Of a stretch of DNA of 20,000 nt, positions 3,126 through 15,802 are shown piece by piece. The DNA is taken from the IMG/VR virus record IMGVR_UViG_3300038679_000356; one strand, given 5' to 3'. The position numbers and the translations under genes were made by a program. The stretch is from an uncultured virus (IMG/VR IMGVR_UViG_3300038679_000356). Taxonomy: Duplodnaviria > Heunggongvirae > Uroviricota > Caudoviricetes. The notes under the pieces are model-generated. The model was given only the letters and a program-made list of their open reading frames with translations, was not told the origin of the DNA and did no database searches. Positions within the stretch are counted from its first letter, which is position 1; each line of letters opens with the position of its first letter.

Positions 3126-4214
3126 TCAACGAATAATGTTTCTCACGATAGATGTTCCTTCCTCGTACCATGGGATATCCATTCTCTCTGACATGCGAAG
3201 CAAAACATCATCATTGATTCTCGTTGGACGCTTACTGTTCCATTCAAGAATATCATTAAAAGGACGCTCCATATGCATAAAATGAACGAGAAACCCCTTC
3301 TGATGTGACTGAGAGACATACTCCCGACGAGTCCGGCGCTTCAAGTTCAAGGCGTCAAAAACAAATGGTTGTCCACGCTCAAGAGAGTCAAAAAAACGCT
3401 GGCGAACGATTTCCGCAACACGCCCTTCCTGCTGTTGCCATTTAACGCCAAGCTCATTGCGAACCGCATCCGGCTCAATGACTGGGAGGTTTGAATTTTT
3501 TGACCAGGTGCTTTTTCCAGACCCAGGCAACCCACACATAAAATAAACTGGACCTTTCATCGGGTGAGGGTTGAGGGTTCTTCCTCTACGAAGAAACATG
3601 CAGGCACCAACACCATCAACGGCAGGATCAATATATGGTGAGCCCCATATGCCAAGACTAAGGCAACGCTCACGCCATTCCTTTGCCTTCGCATAATGCT
3701 GGGTCTTATCGACGCAAATGCGCCCACCGAGATCGGCGGCATAAAGGAGTCCAAGCAGCCGAGTGTCGCAAGCGATCGATATCGATTTACACACGAGATC
3801 ATCCCCCTTGCGGAATCCCACAGCCATATGATTTGCAATAAGCCTGCAAATGAGTTCTCGGGTATCCACATCGAACTTGAATTCCGGAATGTCAGTTTTG
3901 TACATGAACTCTCTCGCCACAATACTGCCAATGTGCTCATGGGCGTGAGCTGTAATGCGTCCGTCTTCGGACACGGCAGTACACTGCGGCTTTCCGCAAT
4001 CATGTAACAGAGCGGCTGTTTCCACGATCGTTTTCTGCTCGTTAGAAAGATCATCAAACTCTTGCAATTCACGCAACGATTGGACAACCATTTTTGTGTG
4101 AACGAGAACATCCCCTTCAGCATGATATTTTGCGTCTTGCGAACACTTTTTCATTGACGCAAATAATGGGATAGAATCAATCTTATTGAGATTAAAAGGA
4201 ATATAACGGCTCAT
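3126..4214 (-). CDS. HD-domain phosphohydrolase fused to a P-loop (polynucleotide kinase-like) domain
   Basis: HAEGDVLVHT, LLHDCGK, HEHIG, NHM, AADLGGR (HD); MCGLPGSGKST, PDAVR, FDALNL (PNK-type P-loop). RBS AGGAG. Confidence 0.9.
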   Translation of the reverse strand: MSRYIPFNLNKIDSIPLFASMKKCSQDAKYHAEGDVLVHTKMVVQSLRELQEFDDLSNEQKTIVETAALLHDCGKPQCTAVSEDGRITAHAHEHIGSIVAREFMYKTDIPEFKFDVDTRELICRLIANHMAVGFRKGDDLVCKSISIACDTRLLGLLYAADLGGRICVDKTQHYAKAKEWRERCLSLGIWGSPYIDPAVDGVGACMFLRRGRTLNPHPMKGPVYFMCGLPGSGKSTWSKNSNLPVIEPDAVRNELGVKWQQQEGRVAEIVRQRFFDSLERGQPFVFDALNLKRRTRREYVSQSHQKGFLVHFMHMERPFNDILEWNSKRPTRINDDVLLRMSERMDIPWYEEGTSIVRNIIR

Positions 4215-4810: not shown

Positions 4811-5388
4811 GGAGAACTTATGTCATATTTCGAAACAACAGATGAGATCCATTTTTTATGATCAGCAGCAAAGCTGTAAAACTCATGTTGGAGCGAATTC
4901 CACCTTGAAGGAATCAATATACCGCCAGAACCGAAACCATTAACGTTACGATCCTGATCATCAAACAAAAACTTATTCCCCAAAGGTTGTACCAATCCTT
5001 TATTGTAGGAAAATACAATGCGCTTTGTAGAAAGCTCAGGCATAAACTTCTTGATCCAATGCATTTTGCCCGTGGCGCACGCTCCCATGGCATTCGGATT
5101 GCATTCATATGGTAGGGACGTGAGAACATGAATGTTCTCCCACTTTCCGTTCGCCAAAGTCAGTGCAGCATCAATCACTGAGTTCATCCATGGGGTCGGT
5201 GGAATATCACTCCACCATTGACAATTTAAACTTTCAAAAAAGTCAATTGCATCAACGTTGAAAATTGAAATAAAATCGAATGGGACCCCTTTCTTTTCAT
5301 TGAGATCCACACAAGTTTTTTCAGCGATTTGACAACTCAAATCGACTAGAACATCGTCCATGTCAAGAAAAACACTCACTTTGTGCAT
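4807..5388 (-). CDS. HAD-family 5'(3')-deoxyribonucleotidase-like phosphatase
   Basis: N-terminal FLDMDDVLVD (DxD motif I), VLTS (motif II), K...W, LFDD (motif IV), C-terminal WN. Confidence 0.85.
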   Translation of the reverse strand: MHKVSVFLDMDDVLVDLSCQIAEKTCVDLNEKKGVPFDFISIFNVDAIDFFESLNCQWWSDIPPTPWMNSVIDAALTLANGKWENIHVLTSLPYECNPNAMGACATGKMHWIKKFMPELSTKRIVFSYNKGLVQPLGNKFLFDDQDRNVNGFGSGGILIPSRWNSLQHEFYSFAADHKKWISSVVSKYDISSP

Positions 5389-6476
5389 CGTTCTCTCGCT
5401 TTTAAGTGGATGCGATAATATAACTTTTTAATTGACGCCACATCAACATTGTCCGGGAGATCTCTTTTGGGGAACTCTCGTTTTACATCTGCAAGCAATG
5501 AATTGGATAGGTCAGAAACCAACTTATATGTCGGCTTCCCCATTTTTATGTCCATTACTTGTTTCTGCATCTCTCCTTCAAGTCTAACAAGCGGACTGCC
5601 TGTTCGCGCAATATTCAAACAAGAATACAGAAGACGAATACAATGAGACATGTTTTTCGCATCATACTTACGCTCTTCACCATCAACGTCAAACCACCGT
5701 TTGTCGTTCCGGCTATTTCTCCAGTCCCAATAGTTTTTCCAGTCTTCGCACGCTTTTTTGTAGCGCACTTCATCAAAAAGCATGATATATCGGAACTTTG
5801 ATTCTTCATCATCCATAGGAATAGAAGAACATACTGGAGGTCCATCGTCTCGAAAGACTCCTTTTGCTTCATCTCCGTAATAATACAGTCGATAGCAATT
5901 CGGCATATGCTCAACGGCTGCGGCGTTGTACTGTGATATATCTACGCCAGTCTCGTTTAATGGAACTGGACGCCATGGAGTGATAATGCCGTTGCTCATT
6001 ACGTTAGAATAGAGATAGCACATGGAGGCACGAATGGGGCGATCGTGAGGTTGAGGATTGTTTACCCATCGATTCTGTGATGAGGCACGCTTAATCTGTG
6101 ACTCAGCATACCCGCAAAACGAATCCTCAGCCTTTTTCGTTACAAAGAGATCCCGAACAGCAAGAACCTCATCCATTATAGACGAGGTTGACAGTACGTA
6201 TTGGTCTGGAACATACAACAACTCAATGATGTTCGGATTACACGCCGCCAACAACTCAATGAATCTCTTCATTTCGTAGTAAACAACATCATTGGTTCCA
6301 ACATCAACTTGCTTTATTTGATCTGAAAGCAAGCCATTCGTAACAAAGTCGAAATCATTGAGGAAGAATACTCCGCGAACGTCGGTATCACTCGTCGGCG
6401 TGGCAAGTCCGTATAATTTACTTCCAGTAATGCACGAGTATACGACATTGTTTGGAACTTCATCAGATTTAGACAT
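5376..6476 (-). CDS. Pol-beta superfamily nucleotidyltransferase (RlaP/YcgL-like)
   Basis: GSKLYGLATPTSDTDVRG (GS...DxD), NPNIIELL, F.GYA..Q, YDAKNMSHCIRLL. Confidence 0.88.
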   Translation of the reverse strand: MSKSDEVPNNVVYSCITGSKLYGLATPTSDTDVRGVFFLNDFDFVTNGLLSDQIKQVDVGTNDVVYYEMKRFIELLAACNPNIIELLYVPDQYVLSTSSIMDEVLAVRDLFVTKKAEDSFCGYAESQIKRASSQNRWVNNPQPHDRPIRASMCYLYSNVMSNGIITPWRPVPLNETGVDISQYNAAAVEHMPNCYRLYYYGDEAKGVFRDDGPPVCSSIPMDDEESKFRYIMLFDEVRYKKACEDWKNYWDWRNSRNDKRWFDVDGEERKYDAKNMSHCIRLLYSCLNIARTGSPLVRLEGEMQKQVMDIKMGKPTYKLVSDLSNSLLADVKREFPKRDLPDNVDVASIKKLYYRIHLKARERCTK

Positions 6477-6505: not shown

Positions 6506-7426
6506 CTACTCTTTGTTATCTTGCCAAAAATGGGCAAGTCCTTCCTCGCACGTACATGCTGGATACCCACCTAAAATTCGATAGGTATCAAACACCTTTT
6601 CTGTACCACAAAAGCGGCATTTGCATAGCCATTTATACGAGCGTGCTAGATGTTTACTCAGCACAACGAACGATTCGGTTTCACGACCAACAAGGTTCTC
6701 CTCAGAATGGCAATGCTTCTTTCGACACTTTTTGCACATTGTACCGTGTTCGAGAAACACGATATTCATGTTTTTGAGGTTGCCGCAGTTCACGCACTCG
6801 CACTTCCATTCTGCCTGACCATAACGATTTCGTCCAACTTTCTCAACGACAGTCCAAGCGCCAACGCGACGACCAACAATATCCAATGACCGTTCCATCT
6901 TTGGGACGACGTAATCAACTATAGTAGATATATCCGCATCAGGAGGGACGATTACATAATTATCCGACTCTTGAGAGTGATATACATCACCAGAAAACCC
7001 GATACACAACGACCATGAAACCTTGGAGTTCTTGAGAATTTGATTGCACTCACCAACTTTCTTCCAATAATCATCCTTGGCGGGAGAAACACATTGCAAT
7101 TTACTCACAGGGCGTTTAAGCATATACAAGACGCCATCGAACTTGACGTTCTTCGAGACCCATCGGAATGCGCCCTGCGCATCACGAGCTGATCGTATAT
7201 ACGTCCAATCGCCATCAACCTTGCCGGTGCGATCTTCTCTCGAAATGCAGCCACACGACTGCGTCGCTCCTTGGCGCAGTTTGCCGCCGCCAACGTGACG
7301 CATGATCCCGCATTCACACTGGCATAGCCAGGCAATTGCTGTTCGACTTTTGTACTGGGGCTGCCCGACGACAGTCCACTTTCCCACCCTCATCCCGGTC
7401 ATATCAATTGAATGATTAGCTTTCAT
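6506..7426 (-). CDS. Protein built from repeats of the Cys-rich module found N-terminal in phage HNH/AP2 homing-endonuclease-like proteins
   Basis: Repeats DMTGMRVGKWTVV..WLCQCECG..SCGC, DIVGRRVGAWTVV..WKCECVNCG..CKKC, NLVGRETESFVV..WLCKCRFCG..CTC, plus a degenerate copy DRTGKVDGDWTYI..W. Confidence 0.75.
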   Translation of the reverse strand: MKANHSIDMTGMRVGKWTVVGQPQYKSRTAIAWLCQCECGIMRHVGGGKLRQGATQSCGCISREDRTGKVDGDWTYIRSARDAQGAFRWVSKNVKFDGVLYMLKRPVSKLQCVSPAKDDYWKKVGECNQILKNSKVSWSLCIGFSGDVYHSQESDNYVIVPPDADISTIVDYVVPKMERSLDIVGRRVGAWTVVEKVGRNRYGQAEWKCECVNCGNLKNMNIVFLEHGTMCKKCRKKHCHSEENLVGRETESFVVLSKHLARSYKWLCKCRFCGTEKVFDTYRILGGYPACTCEEGLAHFWQDNKE

Positions 7427-7470: not shown

Positions 7471-7498
7471 AATATATACTAAGTTTTTAGAAAATCAA
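7471..7498 (-). promoter_or_regulatory. Sigma70-like promoter TTGATT-N16-TATATT
   Basis: Hexamers and spacing identical to the sites at 9889-9916 and 16794-16821. Confidence 0.7.
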
Positions 7499-8478
7499 GT
7501 TTCTTCTGGAGTACCCCTATTCGCAAATCTTGTACGTATGTCATTATTCATCCCAAGCGAAACAGATCCAGAGCGAAGTATTTCGAGAATTGAACACACA
7601 AACGACAGGTCATCACAGGTCAGTCCATCTGCACCGATTGATTCAAGGCAATCCTTCATGGAACCGACAATTCCGCGATGCACCATCAGTTTACACATAC
7701 CATAGGCGTTCATCAGTTTTCCCATTGTCGATATAGCAGTCATCATAACTAATCTGCGTCGCGCCTTATCTTCAAATATTTTACCGGCTTCATAAAAACT
7801 GGCGTTGACTTCCTCTAACGCAGAAGATGCCAGGGCTATAGATGCATCTTTTTCCTTATGATTTGTCTCGCTTTCTGGAACTTTTGCTGACCACTCATGC
7901 AAATCAATAATTTCATCGGCGTTCATCTTCAATTTGACTGACATGTATTGTTGCACAGAGGCGACTGCGACACGAGCCCCACATTCGCGCATTGACACCA
8001 GGAGAGGTTCAAAATCACCATCGGCGCTAACCAAGATGAAGCAGTCGTATTTCCCACGGTGGAAAATTTCCATGGATTTGACAACGAGTTGAACATCAAC
8101 ATCAGCTTTCCCGTTGCGACGTTCGGTGGTATATACCATATACCCATAGTAACGAAGCATGTTATGAAGATTATGCGTTCTGACGTATGAATCGCGATCT
8201 TCTCCAGGGTTAGAGATGGGGGCGAAGCATATCGGCGTACAATCGTCATTTGGGTTGACGAGATAGTTCTTCAATTCGGAGTAATCACCTCCGATCGGAC
8301 CAATTCGCCCATTATCAGCATGAACACTTTTCATCTGGCAATATAGGTTGGCAAGATCAACGGCAATCAGTGTTCTCCCCCTCGTTTTTATCTTCTCCAC
8401 TTTTTCTACCTCTATTTGAGGTGAAGGGAGTTTTTCTGCTTGATCACGATCTTTTTTAGGGTTTTTTCTTCTTGACAT
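7495..8478 (-). CDS. NYN (LabA/DUF88, PIN-like) domain ribonuclease with a C-terminal extension
   Basis: VDLANL, KADVDVQL, LVSADGDFEPL, GARVAV, ADEIIDL. Start at ATG 8478 (MSRRK); TTGAAT-N18-TATAAT lies upstream. Confidence 0.88.
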   Translation of the reverse strand: MSRRKNPKKDRDQAEKLPSPQIEVEKVEKIKTRGRTLIAVDLANLYCQMKSVHADNGRIGPIGGDYSELKNYLVNPNDDCTPICFAPISNPGEDRDSYVRTHNLHNMLRYYGYMVYTTERRNGKADVDVQLVVKSMEIFHRGKYDCFILVSADGDFEPLLVSMRECGARVAVASVQQYMSVKLKMNADEIIDLHEWSAKVPESETNHKEKDASIALASSALEEVNASFYEAGKIFEDKARRRLVMMTAISTMGKLMNAYGMCKLMVHRGIVGSMKDCLESIGADGLTCDDLSFVCSILEILRSGSVSLGMNNDIRTRFANRGTPEET

Positions 8479-8557
8479 TTTATTTCTCTCTTGTTTCTTT
8501 TTGAAGATATTATAGTCCGCCACACTCTCATCATTCAAAAATACCGTGTATACGCAC

Positions 8558-8596
8558 AAAAACAAGAAGGGCGGATGCTTTTGCAACCGCCCTTCT
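8558..8596 (-). terminator. Intrinsic terminator after hsp20
   Basis: Inverted repeat AGAAGGGCGG...CCGCCCTTCT followed by a T-rich tract on the minus strand. Confidence 0.8.
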
Positions 8597-8615: not shown

Positions 8616-8939
8616 TTAAGCAGCCAATACTTTGATCTTTTTGCCCGCCTTTGATTTTACAAGCGGTAAGTTGATCGTCAGAATACCATCAACAACCTTT
8701 GCTGAGATTGCTTCAGCATCAAATTCACTACCGACCCGGAAAACCTTAGAAAAGGCTTTCTTGCGATGCCCTCCAGACGGTTTCACGTCAATGGACAACT
8801 TCCCATCGGCAAGATCAATGGAAACATCATCTGTTTTGGCTCCTGGAACCTGGACTTCGAGATTGTACGCGCCGTCTTCCGACTCGTAAAGCTCGTACCT
8901 TTCCTCGAACACATCCCATAGTGGTTGATTGAACAGCAT
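8616..8939 (-). CDS. Small heat shock protein (Hsp20/alpha-crystallin domain)
   Basis: VQVPG..DDVSI, FSKVF, ISAKVVDGILTINLP, C-terminal IKV motif; RBS AAGGAGGT. Confidence 0.93.
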   Translation of the reverse strand: MLFNQPLWDVFEERYELYESEDGAYNLEVQVPGAKTDDVSIDLADGKLSIDVKPSGGHRKKAFSKVFRVGSEFDAEAISAKVVDGILTINLPLVKSKAGKKIKVLAA

Positions 8940-9097: not shown

Positions 9098-9130
9098 AAA
9101 AAACCGCAGAAGAAATCTTCTGCGGTTTTT
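9098..9130 (-). terminator. Intrinsic terminator immediately after the tmRNA
   Basis: Perfect inverted repeat AAAAACCGCAGAAGA / TCTTCTGCGGTTTTT with A/T tails. Confidence 0.85.
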
Positions 9131-9545
9131 GGTGGACTCGGCGGGAGTCGAACCCGCGTGTTGCAACTGAACATTATCCAGACTTCTACACGTTTATCTA
9201 CCGTTTTCATAAGACCCCCGAGATGATCGATAGAACTCTTGCTCGGAGAGAATTCGGGATTCTTTGTCCTTGACCTACGGCGAGAGGCTCCCTATAGCCT
9301 ACGCTTTCGACTATTCCCACGTCAGACTCATCCGACAGTTAACGCCTTACGCCAGGACGGGAACTGGGTATCCTGGCGTTCCACTTACCGCCGTTAGGCG
9401 GCTAGATTGCTCTGTCGCTGATTAGGCGGCGCGAGCGAACTGCATAGGTTCGGCAGTTGTTTGTTGACCGATATTTTACGAAGCCAACGGTCATCTTCGA
9501 CGTGCCATCTGGCTGTACCGGAGCAATCGAAACCGGATCGAGCCC
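9130..9545 (-). ncRNA. ssrA: tmRNA (416 nt); predicted tag (A)AEPMQFARAA at 9454-9422
   Basis: 5' GGGCUCGAUCCGGUUUCGA pairs with 3' ...GCGGGUUCGACUCCCGC-CGAGUCC-ACCA (T arm, G3.U Ala determinant, encoded CCA). A pk1-like region is followed by ACAACU-GCC resume context and a reading frame ending GCC GCC UAA. Confidence 0.95.
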
Positions 9546-9560
9546 ATGATGAAAAAAAAA

Positions 9561-9690
9561 CCTCACGTAAGTTAAAGCAGCTTTTTTGGGTAAACATTGC
9601 CAGAATTGAACTGGCAACACTCAGTCTTGCACACTGATGCTCTTCCAATTGAGCTAAATGTTTGTAAGCCACTAAGGTTAGGACGTGAGG
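9561..9690 (-). ncRNA. Structured RNA 'A': conserved scaffold enclosing a 73-nt tRNA-like cloverleaf (9663-9591, GCA at the anticodon position); candidate Y-like RNA
   Basis: Stems CCUCACGU/ACGUGAGG and AGUGGCUU/AAGCUGCU; acceptor-like AAACAUU/AAUGUUU; D arm GCUC-AAUUGGAA-GAGC; UCAGU-GUGCAAG-ACUGA; T arm GCCAG-UUCAAUU-CUGGC. Followed by U9. Confidence 0.85.
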
Positions 9691-9700
9691 AAAGTAAAGA

Positions 9701-9851
9701 GGTACGCAAGTTAAAGCAGCATTGGATTTTCTCTCAATCGCTTGAGAGAGAACCCGGTAACTATTGGAGTTGAACCAATGACATCGAATTTATTAGATTC
9801 GCGCTCTACCAAGTGAGCTAAGTTTGTATGCCGCTAAGGTTGGGGCGTACC
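9701..9851 (-). ncRNA. Structured RNA 'B': same scaffold enclosing a tRNA-like module (AAU at the anticodon position, 4-bp acceptor) plus a GNRA hairpin; candidate Y-like RNA
   Basis: Stems GGUACGC/GCGUACC and AGCGGCAU/AUGCUGCU; AACU/AGUU; D arm GCUC-ACUUGGUA-GAGC; CGAAU-CUAAUAA-AUUCG; T arm AUUGG-UUCAACU-CCAAU; extra hairpin UCUCUCAA-GCGA-UUGAGAGA. Confidence 0.85.
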
Positions 9852-9978: not shown

Positions 9979-10010
9979 AAAAACTGCCGCACGAATTTAT
10001 CGTGCGGCAG
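9979..10010 (-). terminator. Intrinsic terminator closing the protein block before the ncRNA promoter
   Basis: CTGCCGCACGA / TCGTGCGGCAG stem followed by TTTTTCTTT on the minus strand. Confidence 0.85.
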
Positions 10011-10070
10011 CTCCAGGATAAGTGCGGATTATCGTACCTGGATTTTGTGGGAGGCAATTGTTAATGCATG

Positions 10071-11102
10071 TTACTTGGTGATGCGACGACCTACTTTCTT
10101 CCGAATCACGCTCACTCCGTTGTTTTTCGGAGCGGCTTTGCCAACTGAAAACACAACCCTCTCTGGAACAATCTCAAACACCTGCTTGGTGCCGGAAATG
10201 TTTGCTCGCTTCCACTTTACCATGTAATTGGCGTAACGAGAGATGGACTGACGAGTCGAACGCTCCTTACCACCATCCCATTCTTTCCTGTAGAAAGAAT
10301 TCCAGGCACCGCAGAAGGCATAAAGATTCTCTACATCAGAGCGCAACTTATGGATATCATCCATGGCGATCTTACGCGGATCACCACGACGGAGTCCGTC
10401 ATTCATTGCGAACCCACGAATAAATTCAGCAGCGGCGTCTTGGTCCTTACTGTAGCGTACGATCCACATACACACCGCCAGAATATGGCGACGATGCAAA
10501 ATTTCTCTGGCGATACGTTCGCCCCCGTCGATAAGGGCAACAACCTTCTTCAATGGGGCAAGCCACTCCGTCATGAGAGACAACACAAAATCTTTGTTGT
10601 TGAAGCGATAGTCATTCCTTGAACTTGATGACTTGAAGCCCTTGGCAATCACACGAATTGCACCAGACAAAAGAGTACGCTCCGTCTTCGTCAAACCAAG
10701 TTTTTGACACACATCCATGGAGTTGAATATATCCGCCTCCGTTCGACGCATGTGAATATCGAACCTGGAGTAGATCGCAGCGACTTCATCTTGACTGTTG
10801 CAGTCATACTCTTGAACCGTGAAGTTATATGACTGTCCGCTCTTGACGACAGCGGATAGAGTATGCTGCCCATTCGCCAAAAGATACTCTCCATTGAGGC
10901 GACACATAGCGATAATGTTTGTTGGAGTGAATGTGCCATTGCACATAAAGTTGGCAAGATCATCAACGTGCCATTCACGAATGGGGCGCTGCTTATCGTA
11001 CTTGCAGTTTGTAAGAATCTGCAACGCCGCTTTTGGACCGATGTTCATTGTTTTTGTTTTTGACGGGATGCTGGTTTTCACCAGAGTGGCTGTCTCTATC
11101 AT
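10071..11102 (-). CDS. Protein with an N-terminal ParB/Srx-like domain
   Basis: QRPIREWHVDDLA..M..G.F...YLLANGQHTLSAVV resembles the ParB-like DGQHR motif. Confidence 0.7.
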   Translation of the reverse strand: MIETATLVKTSIPSKTKTMNIGPKAALQILTNCKYDKQRPIREWHVDDLANFMCNGTFTPTNIIAMCRLNGEYLLANGQHTLSAVVKSGQSYNFTVQEYDCNSQDEVAAIYSRFDIHMRRTEADIFNSMDVCQKLGLTKTERTLLSGAIRVIAKGFKSSSSRNDYRFNNKDFVLSLMTEWLAPLKKVVALIDGGERIAREILHRRHILAVCMWIVRYSKDQDAAAEFIRGFAMNDGLRRGDPRKIAMDDIHKLRSDVENLYAFCGAWNSFYRKEWDGGKERSTRQSISRYANYMVKWKRANISGTKQVFEIVPERVVFSVGKAAPKNNGVSVIRKKVGRRITK

Positions 11103-11141: not shown

Positions 11142-11777
11142 TTAAGAAATTTTCAAATCAAGAAGCGTGAACGACTTTGAAGTTTTAACACCATGTTGAA
11201 TAAACGCAATAATCAACTCGATGGTGATTGCGGAGGTGATTACGGCAAGATTCCTGGCAAGAGGAACGTGACATGGGTCAACGCCAGAGTCTCCCTTCGG
11301 AACAATATACGACTCATTCCATACCGCTTCCGAATAGCCGTCACCCATACCAGAATGAATGCAATGCATTTTTTTGGCGAGGCAATAGTCATAAACGATT
11401 CGGCGAGACAAGGCGTTGTCAAATGCATCAACAACAATATCACTGCCTCTCAGTAATTTGTCGACATTGTTTTCGTCAAGTCGTTTGTCAACACATTCGA
11501 TAACAACTCCGACTGCATCTTCAATGATATTGCCGATAGCCATAACCTTTTTCGACCCGCAATCGACACGAGAATATGGTTGTGTACACAAATTAGATGG
11601 ATCAACCCGGTCAAAGTCAATCATCTTAATGGCTTCAAACCCGCAACGAGCCATGCCTTCTGCGATATTGGCTCCAAGAGCACCAGCGCCACAAATAACC
11701 ACCTTGGTAGAAGACATCTTTGTCATGACAGCTTTGGTGCGAAAGGCGGTTTCATGCTGATGAACTGCATCGTCCAT
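11142..11777 (-). CDS. ThiF/MoeB/E1-like adenylyltransferase
   Basis: VVICGAGALG, IDFDRVDPSNLCTQ, KKV, VVDAFDN...R; no CxxC zinc pairs; a Cys in DPCH. Confidence 0.92.
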   Translation of the reverse strand: MDDAVHQHETAFRTKAVMTKMSSTKVVICGAGALGANIAEGMARCGFEAIKMIDFDRVDPSNLCTQPYSRVDCGSKKVMAIGNIIEDAVGVVIECVDKRLDENNVDKLLRGSDIVVDAFDNALSRRIVYDYCLAKKMHCIHSGMGDGYSEAVWNESYIVPKGDSGVDPCHVPLARNLAVITSAITIELIIAFIQHGVKTSKSFTLLDLKIS

Positions 11778-11794
11778 AAAAAATCCTTCTTGTT

Positions 11795-12643
11795 TTACAT
11801 TCCATCATCGCGTCGTTCAACGACATCGACAAGTGTTTGTAGATCAAAATCGTTATCTCGTCCAGAAAGACACATACCGGCGGACATAACCGTCATATCC
11901 GACTTCATGATTGAAGAGGAGGAGCGTCGTCCAGATCCTGTTTTCCATTCCACGTTCCAAAAATCTCCACGATCAACAAACGACAGCATTTTTCCACCGC
12001 CTCGCTCAAGTGCTTTGCGGATTTTGTCCTCATCTGTTGGCGGACATGAAACGCCAACAACTGGTTTTGGATCGATAGCCAACTTAAATGCAGCTTCATC
12101 TTCTGCTGACAATCCAGAAATGCGGCGCAGCTTGCGAACATCATACGACTCTGTCATTCCTACCCTTACTGCAGGAATGTCACTTCGGTCTGGTCCTTCA
12201 TACCACCAAATTGAACCGTCATATCTGGCTGTGATGGCATGAAATCTTGTTCCAGAATCAACAAGACGAATTGCCACGGGTGTTATGCTGCCAAATTTTG
12301 CCTCATACGATCCACGGTTCCTGGGCAACGCTGCCCAAGAAGAATCGATTCCCTGAAAGCATAACCGGAACCTGGCTTTTGGGAATTGCGAAAGATATGA
12401 AGAGATCTGCCTTTTGGGGGCTTCCCCTTCTAGCTTTGCAACGTTTGAAGAAGATTCCACCGAGAACCTTCCCCAGCCTTCAAAGTTTGGATCAGAAGGG
12501 CGAAGGCGAACAACAATTCCAGCTAATTTAACGCAGATCCTACCGCGAGGGACACAGGGAGCCACAAACGGGGAGGCGATCGAGCTGTCATGCTCGGCAG
12601 CCACCCTGTCAATAAGATCGAATATGTCCCGTTTCATCATCAT
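11795..12643 (-). CDS. Hypothetical protein with C-terminal SAGMCLSG.D.DFDL motif
   Basis: 282-aa ORF, translationally coupled (ATGA) to the vWA gene and ending 17 bp before the E1-like gene. Confidence 0.8.
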   Translation of the reverse strand: MMMKRDIFDLIDRVAAEHDSSIASPFVAPCVPRGRICVKLAGIVVRLRPSDPNFEGWGRFSVESSSNVAKLEGEAPKRQISSYLSQFPKARFRLCFQGIDSSWAALPRNRGSYEAKFGSITPVAIRLVDSGTRFHAITARYDGSIWWYEGPDRSDIPAVRVGMTESYDVRKLRRISGLSAEDEAAFKLAIDPKPVVGVSCPPTDEDKIRKALERGGGKMLSFVDRGDFWNVEWKTGSGRRSSSSIMKSDMTVMSAGMCLSGRDNDFDLQTLVDVVERRDDGM

Positions 12644-13425
12644 TCTAAAGATTGAATCTTTCCGTAAAGAGAATAGGCGTAAGACAGCTTAAAGCCTAAT
12701 TTCTCAGCAATTGACTCAATGTTTTCGATGCCACATTCCTTTATGGCGTTATGGAGCTTTTCCATGTCTTCCGAAGTAGTCTGCAATTCACTCATAAGGG
12801 CATTAATGGCTTTGATTGGATTATTAATGTCGCCCAATTTACCGCCAGTCATATCAGCGATACGCTCGAATTCCTTAGCGACGCGACCGACTGACAATGG
12901 AATGGCATAAACTATTGCACCGACCTTTTCAGCAGCAGCAGTGCATTCATGTAACCCAATTCCAGATGGAGTTTTTTTGCTCCACTTACCAGAATTTTTT
13001 AAACCTGCTAACACTTCAACATCATGTTCCATAATTGCGTGAGGCATAGCGTCACCAACTAAAACGATGATTCTGGCAGATGTGCCAGATCGCCAGTCAA
13101 TACCAGTAGCGGCAGCATAAACACCATCATATACAGCCTCTGGCTCATCACCACCGCCGCTGGGGGCGATACGCTGAATGACGGACTTGATCTTATCAGA
13201 ATTTCCAAGAGCGGATTTACCAAATTTGTGAACCTTCGTGACAAACGAAGTGTCTTCTGGAGGATGATCACGAAACTCAACAACACCACACATGATATCG
13301 AGTTTACTAGAGGCGTCGTCAATGATTCGTTTAATATTGGTGCGAGCCATCGAAATGAAAGGCGACATACTTCCAGTCGTGTCGATGACAAAAACAACAT
13401 CAACTTTATTAAATGTAGTGGTCAT
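12640..13425 (-). CDS. von Willebrand factor A domain protein
   Basis: MIDAS-type DVVFVIDTTGSM, GVVEFRDH, GGGDEPEAV, IVLVGDAMPH. Confidence 0.92.
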   Translation of the reverse strand: MTTTFNKVDVVFVIDTTGSMSPFISMARTNIKRIIDDASSKLDIMCGVVEFRDHPPEDTSFVTKVHKFGKSALGNSDKIKSVIQRIAPSGGGDEPEAVYDGVYAAATGIDWRSGTSARIIVLVGDAMPHAIMEHDVEVLAGLKNSGKWSKKTPSGIGLHECTAAAEKVGAIVYAIPLSVGRVAKEFERIADMTGGKLGDINNPIKAINALMSELQTTSEDMEKLHNAIKECGIENIESIAEKLGFKLSYAYSLYGKIQSLE

Positions 13426-13519
13426 GATTGATTGCCTACTAACTGTATTTTCTTAATTATGTTGACGCCAATATTTATCGATGGAAGGGAGTTGGAGATT
13501 CCCAACTCCCTCAAGCTAT

Positions 13520-13711
13520 TCAGCCGTAGACAGCTTCCGGACGAACCATATATTCTCCGGCATCGTTCTTGGCGACGACCAAACTGTTCAGATCATCGAC
13601 TGCGACATCGAGTTGCTGAGCAGCAATTTCCCTTACTTGGGCGTCCGTGGACCCTTCTTTGATTTCGACTTCGAAGTCGTAAGAGGTACCGTTGTATCTG
13701 ACGTGGAGCAT
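13520..13711 (-). CDS. Small putative beta-grasp (ubiquitin-like) protein with C-terminal Gly
   Basis: 63 aa; strand-strand-helix-strand-strand pattern (LHVRY/SYDFEV/DAQVREIAAQQL/LVVAK/YMVRP) ending PEAVYG; RBS GAAGGAG; E1-like gene three genes downstream. The fold is inferred. Confidence 0.72.
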   Translation of the reverse strand: MLHVRYNGTSYDFEVEIKEGSTDAQVREIAAQQLDVAVDDLNSLVVAKNDAGEYMVRPEAVYG

Positions 13712-15276
13712 GTTGCTTCTCCTTCTTCTGATTCTGGTTCTGCTTTAAGGATTGCGTCCACCGTGGACGCCCTCTCTATTTTTTTCAAGGACTTGAAGAG
13801 ACAATCCTCAGCGTCTTCCCTTGTCGGAAGAGGCGTTTCAGCAATCTCCATAAGGAGAGCCAATCGGGATGGGCGAGACAGCATAGAAACAAGATTGCCG
13901 AATCCATAGTAATCACCCTCAAATACGAGAGTGTCTACTGATGCGCCAACTTCCCGCAAACGTTTCTGACAATAATCCTTGTATTCGCCGACTCTAACAA
14001 TCGTCACATTCGGTGACGCACCCGTTGCCTTGCAATACTTCTGATATGCTTCACCGGAATAGGGCGAGGCATTTTCCTGTTCATCAGTCACGATGACGAC
14101 CTGTTCTACATAGCGCTTTGCCCGTTCCAGAGCAGCAAAGCCAGAACCAACGGAAGTTGAACCGGATGCGGTAAGTCCACGGAAAGCCTTGATCCAATCA
14201 GTCGCTTCCTTACCTTCCGACTTAATCTCCATCGCCATATCGTTGAAAGCATAAACATACAAGTCAGACTCACAAACTCCGGAAAGAATACCGGCAATGT
14301 GTGTGCCGACTGCGATTGCCACATGCAGAGATCCAGAACGGTCAACCAAAATTGCGGTCGGGCACTTGATGCGCCCCTTCGCCTTGACGGTCTCGTTCGT
14401 CGCCTTTTCGAGTTTCTTTCGAGTCTCTGCATCAACGCCTACGACATCAGCAGCCACCGCTGCCTTGGTGCCAGACGCACGCTTGTCCTTTGACACTTTG
14501 TCAATCTTGGCGTGGACCATCTTGCGCATCTCTTCATCATCCATCGCACCACGGCGCTTCAACTGACCAATGCAGTTGACAACTTCCTGCGGACTCATGG
14601 ACTCAATGAGAGCGACCAAGATTGGCGCAGTAATCGCAGGAACGGCACCGACCGCAATCGTGAACGGAATGCGCTTCTCAACGATCATGCGAGCACGATC
14701 AACGTCAGACATATCTTTGTCCGACAAAACTTTAACAAAGTATGGTGCCGAACCCTCTGGAGGTTCGTTTTTGAACAGGATGTCGTTAGCACGCGGCGTC
14801 GGTTTGACGTGCAATGATGCATACATCGTCCGCATAGCGGTCTTCGACCGAACAACGGTGGCGTCAAACCACTTCTCGTTCATTTCTCGTGTGCGCAAGT
14901 ACATTTTGACAGCAGTACGAAATGCGGTCGGCACGCTGTTGAAATGGATTTTCAAATGCCGAAGAACACGCGGAATCTGGAACGGAGGAAGATCAACAAG
15001 CATTGCAAACGCTGCACTACGGTGCTCCTCAAGCTTAGAGAGAAACATCGTAGCAATGAAAACCTCCTTATGATCACGAATATCACCATTCAGGTAATAC
15101 CACGCAGCCAGGCGTCCATAAAACGTCGGATCGGCGAGCATGAATTCCTTATGCAAGGAAATGATATCCTTAACTTCCCGATGAGGAGTGCTCAGCAAGC
15201 TGTTGATGATGCCAAGCCGAACGTCACGCTCCTGAGAGGAAGCTTCCTTTACCACACTCTTCTTAGCCATAATCAT
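13633..15276 (-). CDS. Ro60/TROVE-like protein (helical N-terminal region + C-terminal vWA)
   Basis: Helical, basic N-terminal ~300 aa with DPTFYGRLAAW...IRD (TROVE-like); vWA ILVDRSGS, GSTS, VVIVTDEQEN. Size and layout fit Ro60. Start at 15276 or 15270. Confidence 0.75.
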   Translation of the reverse strand: MIMAKKSVVKEASSQERDVRLGIINSLLSTPHREVKDIISLHKEFMLADPTFYGRLAAWYYLNGDIRDHKEVFIATMFLSKLEEHRSAAFAMLVDLPPFQIPRVLRHLKIHFNSVPTAFRTAVKMYLRTREMNEKWFDATVVRSKTAMRTMYASLHVKPTPRANDILFKNEPPEGSAPYFVKVLSDKDMSDVDRARMIVEKRIPFTIAVGAVPAITAPILVALIESMSPQEVVNCIGQLKRRGAMDDEEMRKMVHAKIDKVSKDKRASGTKAAVAADVVGVDAETRKKLEKATNETVKAKGRIKCPTAILVDRSGSLHVAIAVGTHIAGILSGVCESDLYVYAFNDMAMEIKSEGKEATDWIKAFRGLTASGSTSVGSGFAALERAKRYVEQVVIVTDEQENASPYSGEAYQKYCKATGASPNVTIVRVGEYKDYCQKRLREVGASVDTLVFEGDYYGFGNLVSMLSRPSRLALLMEIAETPLPTREDAEDCLFKSLKKIERASTVDAILKAEPESEEGEATCSTSDTTVPLTTSKSKSKKGPRTPK

Positions 15277-15297: not shown

Positions 15298-15750
15298 TTA
15301 TTTACCAGAACTGCCAAACCCACCAACGCCACGATCAGAGTCAGCAAGACTGTCTGTCAACTCAAATTCAATGTGTTCGTGTTTCTTGAGAACGATTTGA
15401 GCGATTTTCATTCCTGCCGTCACCAGAAACTCTGTTCCTGCTTTGAGACTAGTGAGAATCACGCAAACTTCTCCACGATACCCAGAATCAATAGTTCCAG
15501 GCGTATTGACAACCGTAATGCCATGCTTCAAAGCAAGCCCAGACTTTGGACGAACCTGAATTTCATAGCCCGCAGGAATCTCAACAGCAAAACCACACTT
15601 GATCACTGTAAGTTCACCATATCTGATAACTCCATCCACTGGAGAATAGACATCCATTCCGGCATCACCTTCGTTTGCGTATGTTGGTGCGCGAACTGCC
15701 GAGGTAGAAGATCCATCCGCAGAAAATTTCATAAATTTGACTTTCGTCAT
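15298..15750 (-). CDS. dut: Trimeric dUTPase
   Basis: AGMDV, RPKSGLA, GTIDSGYRGE, KIAQ, RGVGGFGSSG. Start at ATG 15750 with RBS GAGAGGA. Confidence 0.97.
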   Translation of the reverse strand: MTKVKFMKFSADGSSTSAVRAPTYANEGDAGMDVYSPVDGVIRYGELTVIKCGFAVEIPAGYEIQVRPKSGLALKHGITVVNTPGTIDSGYRGEVCVILTSLKAGTEFLVTAGMKIAQIVLKKHEHIEFELTDSLADSDRGVGGFGSSGK

Positions 15751-15802
15751 TGTGTTCCTCTCTATGGTTCTATGTGCCGGTGAGATTATGCAGTACATTC
15801 AA

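Follow-up and report, generated by a model that had tools for sequence, protein, structure and literature searches.

A conserved cassette of giant phages and filamentous cyanobacteria encodes a candidate ubiquitin-like conjugation system together with a Ro60-like protein

Conjugation of ubiquitin-like proteins (Ubl) in bacteria and phages has been shown only recently, i.e. for Cap2 of the cyclic-oligonucleotide-based antiphage signalling system (CBASS), for Bil and for Bub. In Bil (BilABCD) and CBASS Cap2/Cap3, a ThiF-type E1 activates the C-terminus of a Ubl or of a target, which is then passed to a UBC-fold Cys enzyme. Bub (6E/DUF6527) is likewise a set of diverged bacterial E1, E2 and small Ubl and, according to passages of PMC11601596, it uses oxyester intermediates, with a Tyr on the E1 and a Ser on the E2, as well as a DUF6527 serine protease. 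The catalogue of prokaryotic Ubl operons by Iyer et al. 2006 lists only operon types with JAB or other partners and mentions neither vWA nor TROVE. Here, we analysed a stretch of 20,000 nucleotides (nt) from an uncultured Caudoviricetes virus (IMG/VR record IMGVR_UViG_3300038679_000356; this whole stretch is referred to as the window), in which the genes for a candidate Ubl, an E1-like enzyme and an E2-like protein lie in a cassette with the genes for a Ro60-like protein and a second vWA protein. The element from which the window originates is read as a huge phage or a similar element, and, in its record, the protein cluster of the Ubl candidate is assigned to a contig of 340,706 bases.

The cassette genes are all on the minus strand and, in the direction of transcription, encode the Ro60-like protein of 547 residues (13633-15276), the 63-residue Ubl candidate (13520-13711), the second vWA protein of 261 residues (12640-13425), the E2-like protein of 282 residues (11795-12643) and the E1-like ThiF-type enzyme of 211 residues (11142-11777), followed by a 343-residue protein (10071-11102). 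The stop of the gene for the 261-residue vWA protein and the start of the gene for the 282-residue protein overlap by 4 nt, and 17 nt separate the latter gene from the downstream E1 gene. A sequence-only reading of positions 11142-13711 had described a minimal module of a small protein and an E1 in which no E2 was visible. We found that the two form a conserved pair; the module, however, is not minimal because the two genes belong to a larger conserved cassette, which also encodes the Ro60-like TROVE/vWA protein and the second vWA protein, and it does not lack an E2-like component because the 282-residue protein encoded within these positions has a C-terminal UBC-like domain.

In how it would work, the cassette resembles Bil, CBASS Cap2 and Bub, yet it is a member of none of them. 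In contrast to Bil and CBASS, the E1 and the E2-like protein are separate, the E2-like domain is fused to two oligonucleotide/oligosaccharide-binding (OB) barrels, neither a JAB/Cap3 peptidase nor a CD-NTase is present, and the partner is a Ro60-like protein together with tRNA-like RNAs. In contrast to Bub, both enzymes keep a Cys, with a Ser only in the E2-like protein of the related locus L041, and a DUF6527 protease is absent. PADLOC has no model for the Ubl, the E2-like protein or the vWA proteins of the cassette, and the match is limited to the E1 half. The cassette is described neither in the literature searched nor in Pfam, NCBIfam or PADLOC. Moreover, full-text searches of the literature gave no link of Ro60/TROVE to a bacterial or phage Ubl/E1/E2 set, an earlier mention of the E1 clade being possible; the exception is that the Asgard "Nidhogg" viruses encode both Ro60 and ThiF-type proteins.

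A scan for the motif [DK]FDLx[ST]LV[GD]V, for which each species was represented by a single genome, gave 441 stretches, 408 of which encode a relative; the E2-like family was thus found in 408 species genomes. The best 80 loci, here numbered with the prefix L as are the loci from metagenomes, are nearly all from filamentous cyanobacteria (Nostoc, Anabaena, Tolypothrix, Calothrix, Leptolyngbya and others), and one is from a Vulcanimicrobiota metagenome-assembled genome. Synteny was counted among those of the 80 with enough flank, hence the different totals below. An E1 gene lies directly 3' of the E2-like gene in 68 of 75 loci by clustering of open reading frames (ORFs), with a median gap of 9 nt, and tblastn added locus L009. 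The 6 kb upstream contain a Ro60-like gene in 53 of 67 loci and the Ubl gene in 42 of 67, and the complete set of four genes is present in 40 of 63. The cyanobacterial order is Ubl, a 240-residue protein, Ro60-like protein, E2-like protein and E1; the 240-residue protein occurs in 42/80 loci (e.g. L017:1379-2101) and matches no Pfam family. By comparison, the metagenome loci L001 and L002, the latter on a contig of 331,749 bases, have the order of the window, i.e. Ro60-like protein, Ubl, vWA protein, E2-like protein and E1. Among GenBank phages, no DNA similarity to the cassette was detected, and protein comparison gave LR756511.1 alone, an unannotated phage genome of 595,163 bases that encodes Ubl, Ro60-like protein, E2-like protein and E1 on one strand. 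IMG/VR contained no close relatives of the E1, the 282-residue protein or the Ubl alignment. In public annotations, the cassette proteins appear as "ThiF family adenylyltransferase", "vWA domain-containing protein" and "hypothetical protein". In total, we conclude from this comparative genomic survey that the cassette is present in giant phages and many filamentous cyanobacteria with a conserved gene set.

An E2-like gene without an adjacent E1 gene was observed in L032 (6001-6819 and 7431-7748), L007, L008, L012, L052 and L070, the hosts including Microcoleaceae and the filamentous cyanobacterium ESFC-1; a second copy, which is partial, is present in L032. In L053, where the E1 gene is displaced, a CRISPR (clustered regularly interspaced short palindromic repeats) direct-repeat match (RF01356; 36.8 bits, cut-off 35) lies at 6961-6984 between it and the E2-like gene.

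The 63-residue ORF is preceded by a GGAG Shine-Dalgarno sequence and ends in VRPEAVYG with TGA directly after. The C-terminus is as given in the sequence-only reading, which also held rightly that no processing is needed because the Gly is already exposed at the C-terminus. The ORF overlaps by 79 nt with the ORF of the upstream 547-residue protein. Homologues of the latter have 477-527 residues and align to residues 13-488 only and, because they stop at the equivalent of residue 488, its last ~59 residues constitute a non-conserved tail. Within the overlap, the conserved frame is that of the 63-residue ORF, including its conserved N-terminus. All 50 homologues in the fetched loci start with M[VL]H[VI]R and end in [VI]RPEA[VI]YG directly followed by a stop, i.e. 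the Gly is exposed in every one of them; M1, H3, R5, S10, R57-A60, Y62 and G63 are invariant in the alignment. A large protein collection contained three other clusters with 50-60% identity, and a pattern scan of metagenome contigs gave six loci; the homologue in LR756511.1 has the variant C-terminus RPDAIFG. On the basis of this conservation, we conclude that the 63-residue protein is the product of a real, conserved gene. The small protein matches no Pfam, NCBIfam, PHROG or PADLOC family, and its profile gave no significant match among PDB sequences. In the ESM Atlas, its model has a predicted template modelling (TM) score of 0.67, and the neighbours of this model with a family assignment (TM 0.51-0.62) belong to Prok_Ub/PRTRC-C, Ub-RnfH, Ufm1, Rad60-SLD and BilA_UBL_2 clusters. 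These structural neighbours support a beta-grasp fold, as a lead rather than as proof.

The 211-residue E1-like enzyme matches PF00899 ThiF with an E value of 1.4e-31 (109.9 bits; gathering cut-off 28.1). The absence of a CxxC pair, the SNLCTQ motif (residues 61-66) and the DPCH motif (residues 167-170), all of which had been noted in the sequence-only reading, were confirmed. The best-scoring curated model is PRK08644 of the compact ThiF type (112.2 bits; cut-off 159), and the enzyme also scored below the cut-offs of TIGR02354 (100.7 bits; 152.2), the MoeB models (55-70 bits; 266-449), the TcdA model NF011696 (1.8e-10, 40.9 bits; 304), PRTRC_ThiF (35.3 bits; 144.75) and, in NCBIfam, cap2_3. 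The PADLOC E1-E2 models (Cap2-type) match it through their E1 halves only (best 6.9e-16). The best PDB sequences are 9egc (2.9e-8), Uba4 (6.9e-8) and MoeB (1.8e-7), and the NEDD8 E1 catalytic subunit and TcdA (1.5e-6) are also among the matches. An assignment to the thiamine or molybdenum cofactor (Moco) pathways, which had already been denied, is ruled out by the scores below the curated ThiF/MoeB cut-offs; similarly, no thiS/thiG/moaE-type or other thiamine or Moco partner gene was found in the window or among the recurrent neighbour families. Thus, the enzyme shares with ThiF family 2/ThiS adenylyltransferases (PRK08644, TIGR02354) the compact form of ~200 residues without a zinc site, but differs from them in its scores, in the lack of a ThiS/ThiG/thiamine context and in having NL[SC]TQ for the Arg-containing motif.

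Invariant in the E1 family, of which up to 77 homologues were compared, are the GxGxxG glycines of the glycine-rich loop (G30, G32 and G35), D54, D56, R57, N62, T65, Q66, D117, N121, R125, H141 and C169, and D120 is present in 74 of 75 homologues. We take DxxDNxxxR, which contains the invariant D117, N121 and R125, to be the metal/ATP site, and assume that an invariant Arg13 near the N-terminus may match the arginine finger of MoeB-type dimers. Cys169 is present in 75/75 homologues, in the context DDVCDYPLARN.

The 282-residue protein belongs to no Pfam, PHROG, NCBIfam or PADLOC family, and 573 representative clusters fall into its own family at E<=1e-3, 65 of them also at E<=1e-30. An AlphaFold2 model built with an 80-sequence alignment has a predicted local distance difference test (pLDDT) score of 92.2, while the ESM Atlas model (0.42) is uninformative. 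The AlphaFold2 model consists of a helix (5-23), two five-stranded OB-like barrels (about 26-75 and 88-155), a linker and a C-terminal domain (about 200-282). In a whole-model search, the barrels matched OB folds with Z scores of about 5.3-5.6, e.g. ribosomal S17-type, IF1A and Mpa/PAN inter-domain folds. Residues 195-282 were also modelled alone from 16 sequences (pLDDT 67.2), and the model was used for a structure search with VIA. The C-terminal unit has the same topology in both models: it starts with a helix (204-214), continues with four strands and a loop that bears the Cys, and ends in a second helix (268-280). The top VIA match of the domain-only model is the central UBC-RWD of FANCL (Z 6.5, root-mean-square deviation 3.0 A, 76 residues), followed by the Tsg101 UEV (Z 5.3), a Plasmodium E2 (5.2), UbcH5c (5.1), UBE2E1 (5.0), the Cap2 E2 domain (7to3_A residues 7-147; 5.0), the Vps23 UEV (5.0) and Ubc9 (4.9). 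Altogether, 21 of the 50 top VIA rows have E2, UEV or FANCL titles, with Z from 6.5 to 4.0, 76-85 of the 88 residues aligned and deviations of about 3-5 A. A Foldseek search of BFVD gave low-TM rows only.

Cys258 lies in the motif G[IML]CL[SD]GxDxxFDLxxLV, in the modelled loop between the strand 251-254 and the helix 268-280; it is invariant in a 14-sequence alignment and present in 83 of 84 homologues from the loci. In our view, GICLS locally resembles the Cys motif of canonical E2s. With moderate confidence, we conclude from the predicted folds that the 282-residue protein combines two OB folds with an E2-like, Cys-bearing domain of the UBC fold, and we place it in no named E2 family.

The 547-residue protein has a helical TROVE-like N-terminal part and a vWA domain with a DxSxS metal-ion-dependent adhesion site (MIDAS) motif. 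Searched alone, the protein matched phrog_850 'RNA-binding protein' (5.2e-6) through its vWA part and nothing else, including no match in the PDB. A family profile of 14 sequences has as its best PDB match the TROVE domain-containing 9l5y/9kop (profile positions 23-393), which is the Ro60 homologue of the Thermus phage phiLo; Pfam vWA_Ro60 is matched by 4 and VWA_2 by 11 of the 14 members. A Ro60-like identity is, therefore, plausible at the level of architecture and profile comparison. As in Ro60/Rsr with Y RNAs, a TROVE-like part is combined with a vWA domain. Moreover, part of PMC12135203 describes the Yrl1/Yrl2 RNAs of phage phiLo as lying directly upstream of the Ro60 gene, and small structured RNA genes similarly lie directly 5' of the Ro60-like gene in L001 and L002; the linked RNAs here differ, however, in being full tRNA-like cloverleaves, and the sequence similarity is marginal (E 0.012). 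The 261-residue protein matches PF25106 VWA_4 (2.6e-11) and PF00092 (3.5e-5) and has a DxTxS MIDAS motif. It has the same position in L001, L002 and L033 and partly in L046, is absent from most cyanobacterial loci and is, thus, mostly confined to phage-type loci.

Cassette loci contain genes for tRNAs or tRNA-like RNAs on the strand of the cassette, as detected by Rfam and ARAGORN. In 38 of 50 Ubl loci, the Ubl gene is preceded by a tRNA-like gene (e.g. L010:868-942 and L017:518-591), whose end is about 115 nt away (range 111-178 nt). The anticodon that ARAGORN assigned to these 38 genes is CTA in 24 and TTA in 2, with TTT, GCA, GCT, CTT, TCT and others in the remainder, and the gene has a weak 6-bp acceptor stem and then CCA. 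Among 18 aligned RNAs of this kind, the D, anticodon-stem and T arms are nearly invariant and the anticodon loop is hypervariable, and only 2 of 17 predicted pairs have a compensatory change. The RNA may serve as a suppressor tRNA, as a partner akin to a Y RNA or as a decoy. In 42 of 50 loci, the 1.3 kb upstream of the Ro60-like gene contain a second tRNA, with varied anticodons, and L001 and L002 have one or two tRNAs directly 5' of the Ro60-like gene and a transfer-messenger RNA (tmRNA) directly 3' of the E1 gene. The RNA genes of the window are located 3.8 kb downstream of the Ro60-like gene. They form a minus-strand cluster (9130-9824) of a tmRNA (9130-9545; tag AEPMQFARAA), a tRNA-Cys(GCA) (9589-9663) and a third, tRNA-like element detected by Rfam alone (9759-9824; model positions 4-67), and this cluster probably belongs to the surroundings and is not a proven component of the cassette.

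The loci also encode other proteins linked to RNA or translation, i.e. an L7/L12 paralogue in 11/80 cyanobacterial loci (e.g. L036:1643-2035; PF00542, 3.9e-25) and the RNA 2'-phosphotransferase Tpt1/KptA in 9/80 (e.g. L015:3975-4550; PF01885, 2.4e-55). A 68-residue SEC-C-motif peptide is encoded in 14/80 (e.g. L040:3307-3513; PF02810, E 0.0042, below the cut-off). L005, L046 and L070 contain 33, 9 and 8 tRNA genes, respectively, and resemble the long tRNA arrays of cyanobacteria, which respond to translational stress according to part of PMC8421152; ThiF, vWA and adenylyltransferase are not mentioned in its text and one supplement. The sequence-only reading had listed RNA conjugation and sulfur transfer to tRNA-like RNA next to protein conjugation as possible outputs, and RNA-linked outputs are more pertinent than that reading could know because tRNA-like genes recur in the loci.

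We propose that the E1, the E2-like protein and the Ubl form a thioester cascade that acts on or with a Ro60-type RNA-protein complex, and assign this reading a probability of roughly 0.6. The analysis shows which genes occur together, how they and their order are conserved, and which folds can be assigned and which residues are invariant; each chemical step and the target are inferred, as follows: The E1, probably as a dimer, would adenylate Gly63 of the Ubl, which would then form a thioester with Cys169, an invariant residue in a crossover-loop-like position of the E1, and would subsequently be transferred from there to Cys258 of the E2-like domain. The choice of the target would fall to the two OB barrels, the Ro60-like/vWA protein and the extra vWA protein acting together, and this target would most likely be a lysine in one of the proteins of a complex that contains Ro60 and RNA or is linked to translation. 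Because RNA- and translation-related neighbours recur, we suggest a role in RNA damage or translation stress, in the case of the phages during infection.

Several observations weigh against this reading. The E2 assignment is based on fold only, and no sequence-level similarity to E2s was found: the 282-residue family and its C-terminal domain gave no match among PDB sequences and profiles, three C-terminal domains gave no Pfam family at E<=10, and no HPN motif is present in the alignment. Moreover, the VIA Z scores of 5.0-6.5 are under the level at which the tool is trustworthy, the domain-only model has a pLDDT of 67, and Foldseek gave nothing in the PDB at E<=1e-3 with either the full-length or the domain-only model. 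In L041 (Nostoc sp. CHAB 5824), the sole exception among the 84 homologues, Cys258 is replaced by Ser (GISLSG), which could mean that this homologue works through an oxyester as in Bub or is inactive, or that the sequence contains an error. In the E1 family, the motif is NL[S/C]TQ with Thr65 in 77/77 homologues, where we expect the Arg of what we take to be the usual motif, SNLxRQ. At the sequence level, the assignment of the 547-residue protein as Ro60-like is weak (E 0.012), and neither this protein nor any of the 14 family members matches Pfam TROVE. Also, 7 of 75 loci have no adjacent E1 gene by clustering and 14 of 67 have no Ro60-like gene within 6 kb. Finally, no deconjugating peptidase (JAB, Cap3, DUF6527) was found in the window or among the recurrent neighbours.

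An alternative is that the cassette is an ordinary Bil-type, protein-directed Ubl system that conjugates the Ubl to phage or host structural proteins, and that the Ro60-like protein and the RNAs are unrelated neighbours in a mobile tRNA-array region. While the E2-like/E1 pair without a nearby Ro60-like gene in 14/67 loci fits this idea, as does the description, in part of PMC8421152, of long tRNA arrays as mobile and gathering unrelated genes, the Ro60-like gene has the same strand and order in 53/67 genome loci as well as in the three related phage-type loci with flanks (L001, L002 and L087), across >50% sequence divergence, and neither a JAB nor another deconjugating enzyme as in Bil operons was found in the window; we consider this alternative unlikely, if the least unlikely of those weighed here. 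Slightly less probable again would be a version of the cascade in which the Ubl is ligated to RNA. In that case, the OB barrels would hold the co-encoded tRNA-like RNA presented by the Ro60-like ring, and the Ubl would pass from Cys258 to a hydroxyl at the RNA 3' end or to an ADP-ribose set on the RNA end by Tpt1. The product would be a protein-charged tRNA-like molecule, and the nearly invariant tRNA-like body with its hypervariable anticodon loop, often CUA/UUA, would represent a dedicated acceptor or a decoy.

The E1 might also serve a sulfur-carrier system, in which the small protein would be adenylated by the E1 and turned into a thiocarboxylate that would donate sulfur to the tRNA-like RNAs or to host tRNA, as in TtuB/TtuC and Urm1/Uba4, with Cys258 acting as a persulfide relay and the OB folds holding the RNA. 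Such a system would explain that the closest curated E1 models are ThiF-type sulfur-carrier adenylyltransferases, that Uba4 is among the best PDB matches and that the tRNA-like genes are tightly linked, and the invariant Cys169 is also compatible with ThiF-like chemistry. By contrast, the E1 scores are under every curated ThiF/MoeB cut-off, the UBC-like fold of the Cys-bearing partner fits protein transfer over sulfur transfer, and neither a rhodanese, a cysteine desulfurase nor a PP-loop thiouridylase was found in the window or among the recurrent neighbour families of the 80 loci, in which no JAB peptidase recurs either. Moreover, sulfur carriers generally end in GG while the small protein ends in YG. 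We regard a sulfur-carrier function as improbable, more so than ligation to RNA. Least probable, and in our view very doubtful, is that the E1 acts directly on RNA in the manner of TcdA, which dehydrates the N6-threonylcarbamoyladenosine (t6A) in tRNA, with the small protein and the 282-residue protein as RNA-binding or regulatory subunits of a Ro60 complex. TcdA is among the E1 matches in both the PDB (1.5e-6) and the curated models (NF011696, 1.8e-10), the usual ATP-contacting Arg is replaced and the RNA context is strong; however, the 40.9 bits against a cut-off of 304 are far from a TcdA assignment, and this idea gives no role to the invariant exposed Gly on a conserved heptapeptide tail or to the UBC-like Cys domain.

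The window was searched with nine cassette and neighbouring ORFs against Pfam and PHROGs, six of them also against PADLOC and NCBIfam, and with 13 further ORFs against PHROGs only; within this scope, neither thiG, moaE, a rhodanese, a JAB peptidase nor an E2 recognisable by Pfam was detected. Upstream of the Ro60-like gene lies a dUTPase gene (15298-15798, minus strand). A perfect 9-bp hairpin read from the sequence lies directly 3' of the stop of the 63-residue ORF (13487-13510, minus strand); it was not picked up by a terminator scan and is not a classical terminator because it has no T-run. A strong terminator-like hairpin is present at 9980-10014, beyond the gene for the 343-residue protein. 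This protein has phrog_5931 of unknown function as its sole match, contains a GQH motif and looks ParB/DUF262-like by eye. As it has no counterpart in any related locus, it is probably outside the cassette. The ParB-like-looking gene after the E1 gene, judged by eye and without a family match, is one likeness to PRTRC systems; another is the combination of a ThiF-type enzyme with a small Prok_Ub-type protein, a PRTRC protein C cluster being among the structural neighbours of the Ubl (TM 0.51). Membership of PRTRC was ruled out since the PRTRC_ThiF score is far below the cut-off and the ParB-like-looking neighbour is not conserved, and other PRTRC models in NCBIfam matched none of the six window proteins searched.

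Further downstream, Pfam identified an Hsp20 gene (8616-8939) and an NYN-domain gene (7495-8586). Two candidates for RNA-end processing are encoded on the minus strand a few kb from the cassette, a 366-residue nucleotidyltransferase (5376-6476; phrog_388, 6.6e-46) and a 362-residue protein with PHROG matches to polynucleotide kinase, RNA ligase and tRNA nucleotidyltransferase (3126-4214). Together with the NYN-domain gene, they give the region an RNA-repair flavour. The remaining genes of the window have phage-type functions in replication and nucleotide metabolism by PHROGs and include those for an NAD-dependent DNA ligase, a helicase, a thymidylate synthase, a sigma factor and HNH endonucleases.

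If the proposed cascade is correct, the cassette would be a further lineage of bacterial and phage Ubl conjugation, with three unusual traits: an E2-like domain fused to OB folds, no visible deconjugating enzyme, and a consistent link to a Ro60-like protein, tRNA-like RNAs, tmRNA, Tpt1 and an L7/L12 paralogue. Because culturable strains of Nostoc, Anabaena, Tolypothrix and Calothrix are among the hosts, the cassette is directly accessible to biochemistry and genetics. The linkage to Ro60-like, RNA and translation genes would tie Ubl chemistry to RNA quality control and translation stress, and raises the possibility that RNA may itself be a Ubl target.

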